Positions 47,438 through 61,855 are shown, counted from the stretch's first letter. The stretch is 64,000 nucleotides of DNA from Candidatus Deferrimicrobiaceae bacterium (GCA_041633075.1 JBFKGZ010000001.1:854-64853); one strand, 5' to 3'. Made by a program: numbers and translations. The notes: generated by a model from the sequence alone, not told the origin.

Positions 47438-48502
47438 CTACCCGGCGATCAGGCGGGCGATGTCGTTGTAGAAAACGAGCGCGGTGAGCATGAGAATCAC
47501 GGCCAGGCCAACCTGTTGCGCCATCATCCTCGCTTGGGGGGTAAGGGGTTTCCGCCGCAGCGCCTCGATCGAGAAGAAGAGGAGGTGACCTCCATCGAGG
47601 ATCGGGATGGGAAGAAGGTTCAGGATCCCCAGATTCACGCTCAGCAATCCAAGGAAGTAGATGAACGGGGAAATCCCCTGTCTGGCCTGGTCTCCCGCAA
47701 TCTGCGCGATCAGAAGGGGTCCCCCGAGAGTATTGGAGGGGATAACCCGCATGATGAGTTTCACCACGGTGAGCACGGTCAGCTTAACGATCCTCCCCGT
47801 CTCCTCGGCGGCGCGGCCGATGGCGGCCACGGGGTTGATCTTTTGCTGGAACACCTCATTGCTGGCCACCACGCCGATCTTGGGACCGTCGACCTTCTCC
47901 CCGAAAATGGTCCGTCCTTCCCGGATTTCCGGCAGGACGGTCACCCGGACCTCTTCCTTTCCGCGGCGGACGGTGAGAGGCAGTTCGTTGCCGGCCCCCG
48001 ATGCCCGGATCCCGGCGGCGAGTTCCTCCCACGTGGCGATTTCCTTCTCTCCCACCCGGACGACGAGGTCGCCGGCCTGAAGCCCCGCCCGCGCCGCGGG
48101 GGTATCCGGCATGACGTCCCCGATTTTCGGAGTCAGTGTGGGAATACCGCCCAGAAAGACTGCCCAGAACACGAGAAACGCAAACAGAAGGTTCGCGATG
48201 GGGCCGGCGGCCACAACCGCCATCTTCACCCAGACCGGCTTGTTGTAAAACGCCTTCTCCTGCTCCTCGGGAGAAACCTCGTCCGCGTCGTTTTCGCCGA
48301 CGAGCTTGACGTACCCTCCAAGCGGTATGGCGGAAATCAGGTACTCGGTTTCCCCTCTCTGGATCCCCGCGAGTTTCGGCCCGAACCCGAATGAGAATTT
48401 CGTGACCCCCACACCGAGCCGACGGGCAACGATGAAGTGTCCGAATTCATGCACAAAGATGAGAATGCCCAGAACGCCGAGAAAGGACAGGAAATAGATC
48501 AC
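47438..48502 (-). CDS. rseP: RIP metalloprotease RseP (site-2 protease)
   Basis: HExxH motif (VHEFGHF) in first TM, PDZ domain, C-terminal LDG motif. Proposed GTG start 48502 overlapping dxr stop (GTGA); the track ORF extends far upstream in-frame across dxr, which I reject. Confidence 0.8.
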   Translation of the reverse strand: MIYFLSFLGVLGILIFVHEFGHFIVARRLGVGVTKFSFGFGPKLAGIQRGETEYLISAIPLGGYVKLVGENDADEVSPEEQEKAFYNKPVWVKMAVVAAGPIANLLFAFLVFWAVFLGGIPTLTPKIGDVMPDTPAARAGLQAGDLVVRVGEKEIATWEELAAGIRASGAGNELPLTVRRGKEEVRVTVLPEIREGRTIFGEKVDGPKIGVVASNEVFQQKINPVAAIGRAAEETGRIVKLTVLTVVKLIMRVIPSNTLGGPLLIAQIAGDQARQGISPFIYFLGLLSVNLGILNLLPIPILDGGHLLFFSIEALRRKPLTPQARMMAQQVGLAVILMLTALVFYNDIARLIAG

Positions 48503-49677
48503 GGTCTGCTTGGTCTCCTGATTTGGGATATGATGCGGGACGCCTCTTCCCTTGCCTCTTCGTCCACGCGGAGAACATTCTTTAGGGTAACAGGCCTTTC
48601 CTCCCTGCGCCATGCCCCCATCATGGCCTCTCCTACCCTCACGATGTCCGTGAAGCGGATTCGCCCCTTGAGAAACGCATCGACCGCGACCTCGTTCGCC
48701 GCGTTGAGCAGTGCGGGTGCGCTTCCCCCGCATGCGGCAGCAGCGTACGCCAACGGAAGGGCCGGAAATCTCTTCCTGTCCGGAGGCTCGAAGTCCCAGC
48801 CATCCATTCGATGCGGAAGCAGCCGGGGCAGTTCCATCGGGAGCCGCTCGGGATACGACAGGGCGTATCCGACGGGGATCCGCATGTCGGGGACGCCCAA
48901 TTGCGCGATCAGGCTGCCGTCCCGGTACTCCACCATCGCGTGCACGATCGACTGGGGATGGATGAGGACGTCGATCTTGTCCGGGGGAAGATCGAAGAGC
49001 CACGTGCCCTCTATTACCTCGAATCCCTTGTTCATCAGGGTGGCGGAGTCGATCGAGATCTTCGCACCCATCCGCCATACGGGGTGCCCGAGCGCCTCCT
49101 CCACCGTCGCGCGGCGCATCTGCCGGAGGGTATGGTTGCGGAAAGGTCCCCCCGAGGCCGTGAGAATGATCCGGGAGATGTCCTCCTTCCTGTGCCCCTC
49201 GATCGCCTGGAATACCGCGGAGTGCTCGCTGTCGACGGGAAGGATTTCGCCTCCTCCCCTCCTGGCGGCTTCCACGAGAAACTTCCCCGCCATCACGAGC
49301 AATTCCTTGTTCGCCAGGGCAATCCGTTTTCCCATCCGGGCGGCCTCGATAACGGGACGGATGGACGTCACGCCGGCGGCGGCGGCCAGGACGATATCGG
49401 TCCCCTCGGCGCAGGCCACCTCAAACATCCCCTCCTCCCCGAACAGGACGCGCGTCCCGGCGGGGAGGCGCCCCAGTCGGGAGACGGGCACCTCTTCGGA
49501 AAGACACACGACGGGAGGACGGAAACGGCATGCCTGCCGGGTGAGCTCCGCTACGTTCTTTCCCGCGCAAAGCGCGGTCACCCGGAACCTCTTCGGAAAT
49601 TTCGCGATCACATCGAGGGCGTTCCGGCCCACCGAGCCGGTGGAACCCAGGACGGCTACTCCTCTGGCCGTTCTCAT
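48499..49677 (-). CDS. dxr: 1-deoxy-D-xylulose 5-phosphate reductoisomerase
   Basis: N-terminal NADPH motif LGSTGSVG and full-length Dxr similarity; conserved dxr-rseP adjacency. Confidence 0.9.
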   Translation of the reverse strand: MRTARGVAVLGSTGSVGRNALDVIAKFPKRFRVTALCAGKNVAELTRQACRFRPPVVCLSEEVPVSRLGRLPAGTRVLFGEEGMFEVACAEGTDIVLAAAAGVTSIRPVIEAARMGKRIALANKELLVMAGKFLVEAARRGGGEILPVDSEHSAVFQAIEGHRKEDISRIILTASGGPFRNHTLRQMRRATVEEALGHPVWRMGAKISIDSATLMNKGFEVIEGTWLFDLPPDKIDVLIHPQSIVHAMVEYRDGSLIAQLGVPDMRIPVGYALSYPERLPMELPRLLPHRMDGWDFEPPDRKRFPALPLAYAAAACGGSAPALLNAANEVAVDAFLKGRIRFTDIVRVGEAMMGAWRREERPVTLKNVLRVDEEAREEASRIISQIRRPSRP

Positions 49678-50489
49678 CCCGTCCCTCCCGCGAGCGGTGC
49701 GAGCAGCGCGAGCAGGTACAGCACCGGCCCTGCAGAGATGACTGCGTCCGCCCGGTCGAACATCCCCCCGTGTCCCGGCAGGAGCGTGCCGCTGTCCTTC
49801 ACCCCCGCGGCGCGCTTGAGAAGCGATTCAAAGAGATCTCCGGCCTGCCCCGCGATCCCCGCCACCGCAGCGACGAGAGAAACAAACCAGGAGGGAATCT
49901 GGGGGAGGAACAGCGCTCCGTAGACAGTCCCCAGAATGATGCTCGCCGCCAGCCCCCCGAGGGCACCCTCAACCGTCTTGTTGGGGGAGATGCCCGGCGA
50001 AAGACGGCGCTTCCCGATCCCCTTTCCGACAAAATAGGCGAAGATATCCCCCACGAAGACCACCAGGAGACCCAGGAAGACCCAGCGCTCCCCGGCCGGG
50101 AGCGCGATGGTACGGGGATAGGTGGACAGGAATCCTCCGATGTAGATCGCGCCGAGCGTCGCAAGGGCGATTCTCCGCGCCATCTCTGCGTGGGACTTCT
50201 CGCCTGCCGGGAAAAGAAACGCTCCCAGCGAGACGCAGCACAGCACGGCCGCCACCGTCGCCTGAAACGGCAGCAGAATGCCGCAGAGATAGACCAGAAA
50301 AGACATCACCACGCCGGACCACCTGTCCCGGGCGGAAGAGAAGAAGAACCGGAAATACTCTCGGGAGCAGAGAACGGTTACCGCTCCCACCAGCAGCGCG
50401 AAGGGCCAACCCTTTCCGAACATCACTACCCCCACGAGGGGGGGAAGCAGCAAGACTGCGGTGAGAATCCGTTTCCCGAGCACGGTCAC
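49674..50489 (-). CDS. cdsA: phosphatidate cytidylyltransferase
   Basis: Multi-TM protein with C-terminal CTP-transferase signature (SxxKRxxGxKDxGxxxPGHGGxxDRxD = SLLKRAAGVKDSGTLLPGHGGMFDRAD); GTG start 50489 overlaps uppS stop (GTGA). Confidence 0.8.
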   Translation of the reverse strand: MTVLGKRILTAVLLLPPLVGVVMFGKGWPFALLVGAVTVLCSREYFRFFFSSARDRWSGVVMSFLVYLCGILLPFQATVAAVLCCVSLGAFLFPAGEKSHAEMARRIALATLGAIYIGGFLSTYPRTIALPAGERWVFLGLLVVFVGDIFAYFVGKGIGKRRLSPGISPNKTVEGALGGLAASIILGTVYGALFLPQIPSWFVSLVAAVAGIAGQAGDLFESLLKRAAGVKDSGTLLPGHGGMFDRADAVISAGPVLYLLALLAPLAGGTG

Positions 50490-58634: not shown

Positions 58635-59555
58635 CTAATTCAGGAAGCGGATCGGGTTCACGGGGAGGCCGTTCACGTGGACCTCGTAGTGAAGATGCGG
58701 GCCGGTTGTCCGTCCCGTGTCGCCCACCTTCCCGATCAGATCCCCTCTCAGCACGGTTTCGCCCTCCTCGACCAGCCGCTCCGAAAGGTGTGCATAGACC
58801 GTACGATAGCCGTTCCCGTGGTCGATGACGACGAGGTTTCCGTACCGCGACTCGAAACCGCACCGTACCACCCTGCCTCCCCCCGCCGCCTTGATCGGAC
58901 TCCCCTTCGGGGCATCGATATCCAGGCCGCGATGGAATACCTTGGTGTCCGTGAAGGGGGAAACACGGACGCCGAACCCCGACACAACCAATCCACGGGA
59001 CGGCCAAATGGAAGGCAGGCTTTCCAGGTAGGTCCTTCGGACGTCAAGCCGTTCGACTATCACCTCGAGGTTTTTCCCATCGACCAGGAGGCTTTCCTTC
59101 AACTGGTCGCTCCGAAGATCGAGGAGGCTGTCCAGGCGGTTTGTCGCCGAGGTCTCGGGCGTTTCCGCTCCGCCGATTCCCATCTTCGCCGCGGTTTTTC
59201 CCTTGCCGGGCGCCAGCGCCTCGTTGATGTTGACGAGGGCCCGGACGCGGGCGTCCAGCGTTCGGATCCGCTCCACCTCGGTCTCCAGGCTCTCGAATTT
59301 TGCATAGAGGTTGTAGAGCGTCAGGTTCTGCTCGCTGACCCGGTGCCGAAGACCCGCAAGCTCCCTCACCTTCGCCAGGTTCTCCCGGTAGTCATAGATA
59401 AACTGTGTCGCCAGGACGAAAAGAAAGGCGAGCACCCCCGTGGCCACGGCCACTCCGGTCCTGCCGATCCGGAATTCCCGGGACTGCCCGTTGGCACTGA
59501 ACCTGATGGAATATGGAAATCGATCCCCCACCTTTTCCCCGGCCCCCCAACCCAA
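58635..59555 (-). CDS. M23 family metallopeptidase (murein endopeptidase-like) with N-terminal TM and coiled-coil region
   Basis: C-terminal LytM/M23 domain (HRGLDIDAPKGSPIKAAGGGRVV...GNLVVIDHGNGYRTVYAHL...GDTGRTTGPHLHYEV). Track start 59555 is TTG; an in-frame GTG at 59531 (MGDRFPYS..., RBS gggga) is an alternative. Confidence 0.75.
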   Translation of the reverse strand: MGWGAGEKVGDRFPYSIRFSANGQSREFRIGRTGVAVATGVLAFLFVLATQFIYDYRENLAKVRELAGLRHRVSEQNLTLYNLYAKFESLETEVERIRTLDARVRALVNINEALAPGKGKTAAKMGIGGAETPETSATNRLDSLLDLRSDQLKESLLVDGKNLEVIVERLDVRRTYLESLPSIWPSRGLVVSGFGVRVSPFTDTKVFHRGLDIDAPKGSPIKAAGGGRVVRCGFESRYGNLVVIDHGNGYRTVYAHLSERLVEEGETVLRGDLIGKVGDTGRTTGPHLHYEVHVNGLPVNPIRFLN

Positions 59556-59600
59556 AAAAAACCAAGGGGTACCGTACCATAGGTATGGTTACGGTGTCAA
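59554..59600 (-). terminator. weak terminator-like hairpin plus U8 downstream of Zn-ribbon gene
   Basis: Minus-strand RNA ccguaaccaua..uaugguacgg imperfect hairpin (also a near-palindrome in DNA, accgtaccatagg/tatggttacggt), then 10 nt, then U8 (A8 on plus 59554..59561). Spacing is non-canonical. Confidence 0.3.
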
Positions 59601-59650: not shown

Positions 59651-59833
59651 CTACCCCGCGGCCCTTTTCTTGAATTTCTTTTCCGGCTCCCGGTTCCGCG
59701 CCACAACCGGGTCGACGATTTCGCCGCAGTTGAGGCACCTCCAGGCGTAAAAGAGGTCCAGCAAGTCCTGGAACCGCTCGTATACCATCGCCCCGTTGCA
59801 ACGGGGGCACCGATTAATGTGTCGTCGCGCCAT
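59651..59833 (-). CDS. small zinc-ribbon protein (60 aa), uncharacterised
   Basis: MARRHINRCPRCNGAMVYERFQDLLDLFYAWRCLNCGEIVDPV... with CPRC...CLNC pairs; ATG 59833 with GGGAGG RBS at 6-nt spacing; divergent from the PilB-like gene. Confidence 0.5.
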   Translation of the reverse strand: MARRHINRCPRCNGAMVYERFQDLLDLFYAWRCLNCGEIVDPVVARNREPEKKFKKRAAG

Positions 59834-59923
59834 TTCCTACCTCCCTACAACATATTGATGCCCCGGCGAGAACCCGGTTTCACACGCAAGTTTCTCCCGA
59901 AATTGCCGAAATAGTCTGGGAGG

Positions 59924-61855
59924 ATGCCCTCATCGCGCCCGGGAGGAGAATTGTTGGCAGCCGCAAGGAAGCGTATCGGCGAACTGCTCGTGGAGACCGG
60001 ACTGCTGTCCGAGGAGAACCTGACCCGCGCCCTTTCCGAACAGCGGACGCAGCGCGGAAAACTCGGCGACGTCATCGTCGCCCTGGGGATGGCCACCGAG
60101 GACGAGATCGCGCAGGCCCTCTCCCTGCAACTCGGGATCCCGCTGATCGACCTGACCAACACGCCCGTCGAGCCCCCGGCGATCGAGCTGATCCCCGAGA
60201 AGGTCGCACGGAAGCACCTGATCGTGCCGATCTCGATCGAGGAGAGGGACCTCCACATCGCCATGGCCGACCCCTTGAGCTTCGAGGCATTCGAGGACGT
60301 CCGGTTTGCCTCCGGCTACACGATCAAGCCCGCGATCGCCACCCGTTCGGGGATTCTCTGGGCGATCGACCAGCACTACCACCTGGGGTCGTCCTTGAGC
60401 ACGATCGTCAAGGATATCGCCGACGAGCGGCTGGTGGAGATCGTGCAGGACAACGGGGAGGCCGACAAGCGCGACACCGAGGACCTGCGAAAGAAGAGCG
60501 AGGCAGCCCCCATCATCCGGATGGTGAACCTTTTCGTCGCGGAGGCGGCCGACCAGGGGGCCTCGGACATCCACGTGGAACCCTTGAAAACCATCCTGCA
60601 GATCCGAAACCGGGTCGACGGAGTCCTCCGGAAATCCCTCGACTTGCCGAAGTGGGTGCAGGGAGCGGTCATCTCCCGGATCAAGATCATGGCCAAGATG
60701 GACATCGCGGAGAAACGGCTTCCCCAGGACGGCCGGATCGGGGTCCGGGTCGGCACAAAGTCGCTCGACCTCCGGGTGTCCACGATGCCCGCGTCATACG
60801 GAGAAAAGGTGGTTATCCGGATCCTCGACTCGATCAATGCCCAGATCCCGCTCGATTCGATGGGGATGTCCGAAACCGATCTCCAGCAACTGGAGACGCT
60901 GATCCGCCGGCCGCAGGGAATCCTGCTCGTCACCGGCCCCACCGGATCCGGAAAGACGACCACTCTCTACGGAGCGCTCCACAAGATCAAGTCCGTGGAG
61001 CGGAATATCACGACGATCGAGGACCCCATCGAATACGAGATCCCCGGCGTCAACCAGGTGGCGGTGCAGGAGAAGATCGGGCTCTCCTTCGCGTCGACCC
61101 TGCGTGCGATGCTCCGCCAGGACCCCGATGTGATCATGCTGGGGGAGATGCGCGACCTCGAAACGACCACGATCGCAATGCAGGCGTCGCTTACGGGCCA
61201 CCTGGTCCTCTCGACGATGCACACCAACAGCTCGGTGGCAACCGTCACCCGGCTTCGCAACCTCGGGATCCCTTCCTATCTCATCGCCTCCACCCTGATC
61301 GGCATCGTGTCCCAGCGGCTGGTGCGGGTCATCTGTCCGAAGTGCCGGGTCAAGGCCGAGCCGTCCGATATCGACCTCGCTCGTATCGGGCTGGGGAAGA
61401 CGAAAAAAGGAGAGGTCACGTTCTACGAGGGGGAGGGGTGCCCGTCGTGCGCGGGGACGGGATACCGCGGCCGGACCGGGATTTTCGAGATTCTGTCGTT
61501 CCACCAGCAGATGCGCGACCTCATGATGAGCAAGGGCTCCGAGACCGACATCCGCCAGCTCGCGGTGGCCAAGGGAATGACGACGCTCGGCCAGTCGGCG
61601 CTGACCAAGCTGAAGGCCGGCGTGACGACGCTTTCGGAGCTGTACCGGGTCGTGGAGACGGAGGAGGAATTCGGCGCCGGCTGCCCGCGCTGCGGCACGT
61701 CCCTCGGGGCCGACTTCGAGATCTGCCCGGGGTGCGGCCACGCCCTCGTATCGAGCTGCCCGTCGTGCCGGAAGATGGTCTCCCCGCACTGGAAGTTCTG
61801 TCCTTATTGCCGCAACAGCTTTGCGGAAGAGATCCGGAACCGCTCGTTCGCCTAG
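59924..61855 (+). CDS. GspE/PilB/MshE-family secretion ATPase with N-terminal MshEN (T2SSE_N) domain and C-terminal double zinc-ribbon extension
   Basis: Walker A GPTGSGKTT, Asp box, Walker B DPDVIMLGEMRD, His box GHLVLSTMHTN, tetracysteine CPKC..CPSC; N-terminal RIGELLVETGLLSEENLTRALSEQ plus second KLGDVIVALG... repeat; extra C-terminal CPRC..CPGC..CPSC..CPYC. The real start may be TTG 59954 (AGGAG at 5-nt spacing) rather than ATG 59924 (SD abuts the ATG). Confidence 0.85.
   Translation: MPSSRPGGELLAAARKRIGELLVETGLLSEENLTRALSEQRTQRGKLGDVIVALGMATEDEIAQALSLQLGIPLIDLTNTPVEPPAIELIPEKVARKHLIVPISIEERDLHIAMADPLSFEAFEDVRFASGYTIKPAIATRSGILWAIDQHYHLGSSLSTIVKDIADERLVEIVQDNGEADKRDTEDLRKKSEAAPIIRMVNLFVAEAADQGASDIHVEPLKTILQIRNRVDGVLRKSLDLPKWVQGAVISRIKIMAKMDIAEKRLPQDGRIGVRVGTKSLDLRVSTMPASYGEKVVIRILDSINAQIPLDSMGMSETDLQQLETLIRRPQGILLVTGPTGSGKTTTLYGALHKIKSVERNITTIEDPIEYEIPGVNQVAVQEKIGLSFASTLRAMLRQDPDVIMLGEMRDLETTTIAMQASLTGHLVLSTMHTNSSVATVTRLRNLGIPSYLIASTLIGIVSQRLVRVICPKCRVKAEPSDIDLARIGLGKTKKGEVTFYEGEGCPSCAGTGYRGRTGIFEILSFHQQMRDLMMSKGSETDIRQLAVAKGMTTLGQSALTKLKAGVTTLSELYRVVETEEEFGAGCPRCGTSLGADFEICPGCGHALVSSCPSCRKMVSPHWKFCPYCRNSFAEEIRNRSFA

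Follow-up and report, generated by a model that had tools for sequence, protein, structure and literature searches.

What does a motor ATPase of the type IV pilus kind do in a locus that holds no other part of a pilus, and what is the meaning of the second set of cysteine pairs that follows its catalytic domain? The question is raised by a stretch of 64,000 nucleotides (64 kb) from Candidatus Deferrimicrobiaceae bacterium (GCA_041633075.1 JBFKGZ010000001.1:854-64853), here called the window, in which positions 59,651 to 61,855 hold a long gene for an ATPase of the GspE/PilB kind and, divergent from it, a small gene for a zinc-ribbon protein. PilB-type ATPases power type IV pili and type II secretion, and their control by cyclic di-GMP (c-di-GMP) is an active topic. 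By its sequence, the protein is a complete ATPase of the T2SSE superfamily, of the PilB/MshE class that carries an MshEN module, and its C-terminal double zinc ribbon (DZR) makes it a member of a widespread uncharacterised variant of that class and no one-off oddity. The reading that we prefer, to which we give about even chances, is that of a c-di-GMP-gated motor or signalling ATPase in which the DZR would serve as a regulatory docking module. The gene and its parts are the following.

59954..61855, plus strand: gene of the PilB/MshE-class ATPase with C-terminal DZR, likely 633 aa
59972..60130, plus strand: MshEN_N-type putative c-di-GMP module, two 24-residue motifs, RIGELLVETGLLSEENLTRALSEQ and KLGDVIVALGMATEDEIAQALSLQ, separated by the spacer RTQRG
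60131..60388, plus strand: MshEN / T2SSE_N (N1-type) domain (PF05157, aa 70-155, E 2.8e-23)
60497..61648, plus strand: T2SSE ATPase core, N2 and C-terminal domain (CTD) (PF00437, aa 192-575, E 1.3e-133, model positions 3-370 of 370)
61334..61450, plus strand: canonical tetracysteine zinc site of the CTD (C471, C474, C506 and C509 in the numbering of the 643-aa open reading frame, ORF)
61682..61810, plus strand: DZR (PF12773, aa 587-629, 41.3 bits against a gathering cut-off of 27.3)

The catalytic part of the protein is complete. An earlier, sequence-only reading of this DNA had credited it with all of the GspE/PilB ATPase motifs, and they are indeed present: a regular-expression search places Walker A (GPTGSGKT) at residue 338 and Walker B (DPDVIMLGEMRD; VIMLGEMRD at 403), the Asp box TIEDPIEYE and the His box TGHLVLSTMHTN can be read from the translation, and the match to the T2SSE model is full-length. 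The four cysteines of the tetracysteine site (C461/464/496/499 in the numbering of the 633-aa protein) fall inside the region that aligns to solved PilB and GspE chains and are invariant in a 61-sequence alignment of the wider subfamily (alignment A2). The AlphaFold2 (AF2) model obtained with a 61-sequence alignment, which predicts a PilB/GspE fold, has a mean pLDDT of 88.5, with values above 90 in the core. Foldseek aligns this core with G. metallireducens PilB and T. thermophilus PilF (5tsh, 5tsg, 5oiu, 5it5) at TM scores of 0.93-0.95 and an rmsd of 1.7-2.2 Å over about 381 columns, at 44-45% identity, while identity to GspE in the same fold search is 40-48%. Ranked by sequence, the best solved relatives are PilF (540 bits) and the PilB proteins of Geobacter and Myxococcus, followed by GspE.

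The named families are another matter, and by NCBI criteria the protein is outside both of the equivalogs that could apply to it. Against the PilB equivalog TIGR02538 it scores 611 bits, below the cut-off of 675.65, with positions 2-562 of the 564 of the model aligned; against the GspE equivalog TIGR02533 it scores 600.2 bits, below the cut-off of 630.25. The NCBI names of its orthologues are generic ('ATPase, T2SS/T4P/T4SS family'), except for one record that says GspE. That record, a GspE score near its cut-off and almost level with the PilB score, and a distant relative (locus L004, below) whose order of secretin, TPR protein and ATPase resembles the mshL-mshN-mshE order of the msh genes, all suit the notion of a GspE-type ATPase that serves a type II secretion or MSHA-like system whose genes lie elsewhere and include no ATPase in their own cluster. 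We consider this very unlikely: besides the score under the cut-off, a c-di-GMP module at the N-terminus is what MshE and PilB-type proteins typically have, and there are no gsp or msh genes in any Deferrimicrobia locus examined. In particular, no gsp genes occur near the ATPase in the window or in the related loci L001 and L002/L003, and neither a secretin nor a T2SSF protein, as an msh context would have, is encoded in the 64 kb of the window.

The input end of the protein is of the MshEN type. The strict MshEN motif, RLGxx(L/V/I)(L/V/I)xxG(L/V/I)(L/V/I)xxxxLxxxLxxQ, is repeated with a 5-residue spacer, and MshEN takes up one c-di-GMP per chain via both motifs (PMC5013675). In the window protein the spacer has exactly 5 residues, the first motif starts with RIG and so departs from the strict motif at position 2, and the second starts with KLG, its departures being K, M-A and I; a regular-expression search showed that both match the relaxed pattern of Wang et al. 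2016 (PMC5013675) and that neither matches the strict one. The tandem MshEN-like repeats of the sequence-only reading fit in the relaxed form, and the NCBIfam model for an MshE-related c-di-GMP motif domain, NF053729, is matched above its cut-off and over its whole length (aa 17-69, 58.7 bits, cut-off 38, model 1-53 of 53), but the claim that the first repeat fits the motif at every constrained position is wrong, on account of RIG. Among 120 close orthologues, 97 have a strict first motif and 101 the tandem relaxed pair, and in the wider subfamily NF053729 is matched by 35 of 61 members at E <= 1e-9 (alignment A2). From this we infer that the N-terminal 53 residues are an MshEN_N module and a putative c-di-GMP receptor.

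At the other end, the protein extends beyond the point where its solved homologues stop. It has twelve cysteines in six CxxC pairs, and the four pairs that are not part of the tetracysteine site (C587/590, 601/604, 612/615 and 626/629) make up the 43-aa pattern CxxC-x10-CPxC-x7-CxxC-x7-W-xx-CPYC, followed by a 14-aa tail ending in RSFA. The sequence-only reading had taken these four extra pairs for a double zinc ribbon, leaving open that they might be the standard tetracysteine region of GspE; the domain search confirms the former and separates the two (C587-C629 versus C471-C509), since the extra pairs have their own PF12773 match and no alignment of a solved homologue goes past residue 577 of the 633-aa protein. 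A DZR is absent from all of the solved T2SSE chains. The AF2 model shows it as beta-hairpins with pLDDT values of 64-84, and in searches of sequences in the PDB it meets only matches of E ~1e-3 to archaeal ribosome-bound zinc ribbons, which probably reflect the cysteine pattern.

The tail itself is a feature of the lineage: 111 of the 120 lineage orthologues (P0001-P0120) end 14 residues after the last cysteine, the tail of the window protein being encoded by 61811..61852, and their terminal tetrapeptide is nearly fixed as [RH]-S-F-A, whereas the relatives with a fused receiver domain end in ...RTYG[ILF]. The [RH]-S-F-A end may be a C-terminal short linear motif.

A first line of evidence on the DZR is its distribution. 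The last 164 residues were compared by phmmer with 1.84 billion representative proteins, and the best 150 clusters (50% identity) were examined. Nearly all of these matches extend from the last part of the CTD over the DZR; in at least 141 of the 150 the DZR directly follows the ATPase, and in the 141 the spacing is CxxC-x10-CxxC-x7/8-CxxC-x10-CxxC. Eight cysteines, one tryptophan and one proline are invariant across 40 diverse members that share 30-44% identity with the window protein (alignment A1), and the eight cysteines of the DZR are also invariant in alignment A2. Invariance of these residues in such distant members argues for selection on the DZR as a module. The extension, called unusual at first sight, is so when set against the characterised proteins; taken by itself, it defines a large subfamily in several phyla.

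In a good part of this subfamily the DZR is not the end of the chain, and 49 of the 141 clusters run on for at least 90 residues past it. Pfam domains were assigned in ten sampled members: a receiver domain (REC) follows the DZR in six and a GAF plus an HD-GYP domain in one, and one of the ten has four MshEN copies at its N-terminus. Response-regulator models match 18 of the 61 members in alignment A2, and in receiver-fused members a Pro/Ala-rich linker precedes a canonical receiver domain. The literature yielded no relevant paper on PilB with a zinc ribbon, on T2SSE with a receiver domain or on the function of the DZR.

Genomic DNA was also scanned for the cysteine spacing of the DZR, which gave at least 120 matches, not to be read as a census, and nine 8-kb loci with a fusion to the ATPase. 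Among the matches listed, the fusion loci are L034, L041, L055, L057, L061, L064, L065, L079 and L118, and the fusions come from metagenome-assembled genomes (MAGs) of Acidobacteriota, Nitrospirota (including Ca. Magnetominusculus), Zixibacteria and Eisenbacteria, and from MAGs labelled Deltaproteobacteria and Cyanobacteria. A profile search with the 40-sequence C-terminal alignment A1 returned 11 short fragments and no full-length proteins. As in Thermus PilF, there is more than one MshEN unit in some DZR-ATPases, two in L061 and L065 (Nitrospirota) and four in P0212, so that multiple GSPII domains and the DZR are decorations that can be combined.

About nine in ten of the matches listed in the same scan are small non-ATPase DZR proteins. 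Proteins of 150-250 aa with a C-terminal DZR and identical spacing of Cys, Trp and Pro are numerous in Coriobacteriia, Actinomycetota and Chloroflexota and occur in some Bacillota (L008-L127); examples are those of Collinsella stercoris (L032, 5629..6096), Clostridium malenominatum (L018, 4343..4930) and Thermogemmatispora (L027, 4569..5237). In the small proteins checked with Pfam the DZR follows a weak PLDc_N-like hydrophobic region.

The genes that surround DZR-ATPases in other phyla offer a second line of evidence. About ten distant contexts were compared, a small and non-random sample, and the gene orders are as follows.

L034, 3..7981 ('Deltaproteobacteria' MAG): HD-GYP protein, Ras/Arf-like GTPase, histidine kinase, ATPase, REC, HD-GYP, HEAT protein
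L061: Wzt-type ABC ATPase, DZR-ATPase, CheX, CxxCxxCC protein, transporter, DUF3391-HD-GYP protein
L057: HDOD protein, ATPase
L041: GT4 glycosyltransferase, ATPase, PilZ protein
Contig of P0203: PAS-kinase-REC, NtrC-type activator, REC, ATPase-DZR-REC, DnaJ
L004: secretin, TPR protein, ATPase-DZR-REC, with a second T2SSE and pilins a few kb off
L079: ATPase-DZR, PilT, PilC (a pilB-pilT-pilC operon)
L007 and L129: no telling neighbours, with a GT22 in L129

The contigs of P0198, P0201, P0220 and P0257, of 2-6 kb, are little informative, and that of P0223 shows the upstream side only. The ATPase of L034 has a long N-terminal extension, and the compact cluster in which it lies, with its stand-alone receiver, gives the impression of a signalling module dedicated to it. 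Over the whole sample signalling genes, chiefly related to c-di-GMP, are the commonest neighbours, and pilus parts are met in 2 of the approximately ten contexts; the evidence leans towards a regulatory link for the DZR-ATPases. Of the two roles offered by the sequence-only reading, the ATPase of an uncharacterised machine or a regulatory variant, it is thus the second that the contexts in other phyla favour somewhat.

Taken together, these observations suggest how the protein might work. c-di-GMP would be bound by the 53-residue N-terminal MshEN_N module and the ligand state passed allosterically to the ATPase ring, as in the PilB of C. thermophilum, where N-terminal c-di-GMP and ADP at the ATPase domain affect each other and ATPase activity rises when the N-terminus is removed (PMC6957770). 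The hexameric ring, built of N2 and CTD with the normal zinc site, would hydrolyse ATP, and the 43-aa DZR, carried on the last helix of the CTD, would fold round two zinc ions and act as a docking site or adaptor for partners in regulation. About one subfamily member in three would have the partner fused in cis after the DZR, as a receiver or, in one sampled case, as GAF plus HD-GYP; elsewhere it would be one of the signalling proteins encoded next door (REC, HD-GYP, PilZ, HDOD, CheX). In the organism of the window the ATPase would work in trans, serving a pilus-like platform whose genes lie elsewhere or taking part in c-di-GMP-dependent signalling. Its use as a motor is possible, given that DZR homologues stand in the pilB-pilT-pilC operon of L079 and after the secretin and TPR genes of L004.

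The same contexts can be read without any motor, as those of a signalling ATPase that passes the state of c-di-GMP on to the regulation of polysaccharide or biofilm, the DZR contacting a downstream regulator. A precedent is M. xanthus PilB, described as a signalling protein for exopolysaccharide (PMC5544727; discussed in PMC6957770). Most of the distant contexts lack pilus genes and have signalling, glycosyltransferase or Wzt genes instead, among them the sugar-related ones with GT4 and PilZ (L041), with Wzt, CheX and HD-GYP (L061) and with GT22 (L129), and in the lineage of the window the gene is an orphan. The sugar-related neighbours are few and could be there by chance, however, the catalytic motifs are all intact, with no sign of a lost motor function, and pilus parts do accompany the ATPase in L004 and L079; a role in signalling only is, in our view, unlikely.

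Some of the evidence counts against a c-di-GMP-gated ATPase with a docking module as well. In place of the RLG of the strict motif the two N-terminal motifs have RIG and KLG, and the DZR is modelled at no more than pLDDT 64-84. The core of the window protein shares a median of 48% identity (range 34-63%) with those of distant DZR members, no more than with characterised PilB, PilF and GspE (40-48%); core identity cannot separate out a monophyletic DZR group, and context from other phyla transfers to the window only with caution. In the lineage itself the neighbours are housekeeping genes, so that the adaptor role is argued from other phyla.

Within that lineage the gene is well represented: its orthologues, at 70-92% identity, form more than 120 clusters, every one with the DZR and most of 633 aa, and the named sources are Ca. 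Deferrimicrobiaceae or 'Deltaproteobacteria' MAGs. In the window the genes beyond the small zinc-ribbon gene, all on the minus strand, are those for an M23 peptidase, SecA, ArgJ, ribosomal protein S2, EF-Ts, UMP kinase, RRF and UppS, and two OppF/OppD-type ABC ATPases lie 3' of the ATPase ORF. The sequence-only reading had named the M23 peptidase and the opp ATPases as flanks, which is correct, with SecA to be added on the M23 side. Its statement that no pilC, pilT or pilin gene is nearby likewise holds, for the window and for five related loci: no PilC, PilT, secretin or prepilin-like ORF was found in the whole 64 kb, and no pilT, pilC or other pilus gene within 10 kb in L001, L002 and L128. 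The arrangements in the lineage are these.

L001 and L002/L003: ArgJ, SecA, M23 and small gene on one strand, ATPase divergent
L055 and L128: as in L001 but lacking M23, the small gene directly before secA
Far side (away from the small gene) in the window, L055 and L128: opp operon (L128, 1..7955)
Far side in L001, 12000..19929: toxin-antitoxin modules and a 1948-aa RHS/teneurin-like protein
Far side in L002, 11897..21884: glyoxalase and a type I-C CRISPR-Cas locus

On this side of the gene, synteny between the relatives breaks off.

It is against this background that the simplest alternative has to be weighed, that the protein is the ordinary PilB, the extension motor of a type IVa pilus, encoded away from the rest of its system, and that the zinc ribbon is a tolerated decoration with no role of its own. 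Genes for pili are often scattered in genomes, the PilB model aligns almost from end to end at 611 bits, the best-scoring solved relatives are PilF and PilB, and L079 shows a DZR homologue in a pilB-pilT-pilC operon. Nevertheless, the score is below the PilB cut-off, and the published genome of a member of the Ca. Deferrimicrobium family annotates a distinct, canonical PilB adjacent to PilT. The name PilB requires the equivalog cut-off, and that PilB adjoins pilT and not secA, which together make the DZR-ATPase, as judged from the relative's genome, probably an extra paralogue beside a canonical PilB. An idle zinc ribbon is also hard to reconcile with cysteines, tryptophan and proline that are invariant in very distant members and with its recurrence in fusions to REC and HD-GYP domains. 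A displaced PilB is accordingly a quite unlikely explanation, though a shade less so than a GspE.

The second gene of the locus, and the DNA between the two, were analysed by comparison of the window with its relatives.

59651..59833, minus strand: 60-aa zinc-ribbon gene, divergent from the ATPase (ORF, ribosome-binding site and homologues)
59834..59953, no strand: divergent intergenic region, common to the ATPase and the small gene (five-locus alignment)
59571..59600, minus strand: sigma-70-like promoter candidate, TTGACA-N18-TACGGT with TG in the spacer, kept in four relatives

The pair of ORFs first proposed, of 643 aa on the plus strand and 60 aa on the minus strand, is recovered by the ORF call, in which the longest ORF for the ATPase runs from an ATG over 59924..61855. 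The start is another question. In the five-locus alignment the ATG at 59924 falls within a conserved -10-like element, TATGATGG in the relatives and GAGGATGC in the window, and abuts GGGAGG with no spacing, while the TTG at 59954 lies five bases 3' of GGAGGAG and yields 633 aa, as in most orthologues, which start about 10 codons 3' of the ATG. The position of the ATG in the -10-like box, the GGAGGAG site and the N-termini of the orthologues are the reasons for which TTG 59954 is probably the true start, giving 633 aa. The first ten codons of the 643-aa ORF (59924..59953) are probably untranslated. The alignment also shows a conserved GGTTTC(A/G)C box in the intergenic region.

The 60-aa ORF is, on the same kind of evidence, a real gene. 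It has the good ribosome-binding site ascribed to it by the sequence-only reading (GGGAGG, 6 nt before the ATG) and encodes a single C4 zinc ribbon, CPRC...CLNC, with a basic KKxKKRA tail. Its conservation in relatives, on which that reading had made the proposal depend, is clear: homologues form 73 clusters of 58-92% identity, all of them from members of the lineage, and in each of the five lineage loci (including L001, L002/L003, L055 and L128) the gene lies next to the ATPase and divergent from it. A core, CPRCNGAMVYERFQDMLDLFYAWRCLNCGEIVDPVVARNR, has 21 invariant columns, and variation, in whole codons, is confined to the ends and the basic tail. In the AF2 prediction it is a zinc-ribbon hairpin whose tail is disordered, and the fold search returned generic zinc ribbons, none significant, of which the best is the N-domain of MqsA (E 0.13). 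The idea that it is one half of a DZR split off from the ATPase was rejected on the cysteine spacing, 20 against 10 residues.

Whether the small protein is also a partner of the ATPase is less clear. A local phmmer search found it absent beside every distant DZR-ATPase examined, and in every lineage locus it also lies directly upstream of M23 or secA. The expression 'only partner' therefore holds as regards position, which is conserved in the lineage, and fails as evidence of partnership, because the protein occurs in the lineage only and is equally tied to secA.

The region downstream of the small gene bears on this point. In L001, L002, L055 and L128 a TTGACA lies 41 nt after the stop codon of the small gene, and in the window 53 nt after it, followed by TGnTAnnnT, with a spacer of 17-18 nt across the window and its relatives; this promoter-like element at 59571..59600 probably drives the transcript of M23 and secA (and argJ). 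The hairpin followed by U8 that the sequence-only reading had placed here as a terminator does not hold up: the fold is no better than that of shuffled sequences (z = -0.88), it was not called in the terminator scan, and the conserved promoter-like element overlaps it, so that the terminator was rejected. If the promoter acts, the U8 at 59554..59561 would lie in the 5' leader of the M23/secA transcript and would not be the tail of a terminator.

As the downstream genes appear to have a conserved promoter of their own, the small gene is probably a separate transcription unit, and since its promoter region is common to it and the ATPase, a functional tie to the ATPase is somewhat more likely than membership in an operon with secA. 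A stronger claim would make the small protein a partner dedicated to the ATPase, or its regulator, for instance by binding to the DZR or by controlling the divergent promoter. Its constant divergent position in five loci, even where M23 is missing or the far flank of the ATPase has changed, its strong conservation, its own ribosome-binding site and the separate promoter of M23/secA are what such a partner would show; a family restricted to one lineage and missing beside distant DZR-ATPases, which adjoins secA or M23 just as constantly, yields only generic ribbons in fold searches and does not match the DZR in spacing, is not what would be expected of it. Synteny in one family-level clade is in any case weak evidence of partnership, and we regard the claim as doubtful.

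The different threads can be joined in a bolder proposal, which we advance as a speculation with a rather low chance of being right as a whole: that MshEN-T2SSE-DZR proteins, with or without a receiver or HD-GYP domain, are a distinct widespread class, with c-di-GMP as the N-terminal input and a phosphorelay or partner protein as the input at the DZR, that they would work mostly away from pilus operons, as signalling hubs or as motors of an unrecognised machine, and that in Deferrimicrobia the 60-aa protein would dock on the DZR.

Elsewhere in the window, a 434-aa ORF with no Pfam match (48437..49741, plus strand) overlaps a 392-aa antisense ORF (48499..49677, minus strand) of similar GC3.

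For the window taken by itself the practical consequence is a modest one, that its gene should be annotated neither as a pilus PilB nor as GspE. More generally, the biochemistry and the structures obtained to date come from proteins that end at the CTD; if the DZR is a regulatory docking site, PilB-type motors would have a second, C-terminal control input, and this, if true, would offer a handle on the roles of many 'orphan' PilB paralogues in environmental bacteria.

Among known systems, the nearest are the MshEN-containing PilB proteins of M. xanthus, C. thermophilum and G. metallireducens/G. sulfurreducens (5tsg, 5tsh, 5zfr, 3jc8), which share with the window protein the order MshEN_N, MshEN_C, N2 and CTD with the tetracysteine, 44-45% identity over the approximately 381 core columns and the position of the c-di-GMP motif at the extreme N-terminus. 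The window protein differs from them in the 66 extra C-terminal residues with the DZR, in a score below the PilB equivalog cut-off and in a gene that is not located by pilT or pilC. Another relative is V. cholerae MshE, which belongs to the msh operon and is not known to have a DZR. Like the window protein, it has at its N-terminus a pair of 24-residue motifs, 5 residues apart, ahead of a T2SSE ATPase (PMC5013675); the window protein departs from it in its RIG and KLG motifs, which match the relaxed pattern only, and in a window with no msh genes.

T. thermophilus PilF (6f8l, 5it5, 5oiu) is the best solved match by sequence, and its GSPII/MshEN domains bind c-di-GMP (PMC11731258); its GSPII domains number three and it lacks a C-terminal zinc ribbon, whereas the window protein has one MshEN unit. 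The GspE/EpsE proteins (4pht, 4ksr, 1p9r) share the ATPase core and the tetracysteine at 40-48% identity, but GspE, encoded in a gsp cluster, has GspL and GspF to work with and no DZR, and the window locus has no gsp genes. In the small proteins of Coriobacteriia, Actinomycetota and Chloroflexota the Pfam DZR has the same spacing, with a PLDc_N-like region in place of the ATPase. The uncharacterised metagenomic MshEN-T2SSE-DZR-REC and MshEN-T2SSE-DZR-GAF-HD-GYP proteins (such as P0202, P0203 and P0257) have the architecture of the window protein and its Cys spacing, Trp and Pro through the DZR; they run on into a receiver or into GAF and HD-GYP domains, while the window protein ends 14 residues past the DZR.

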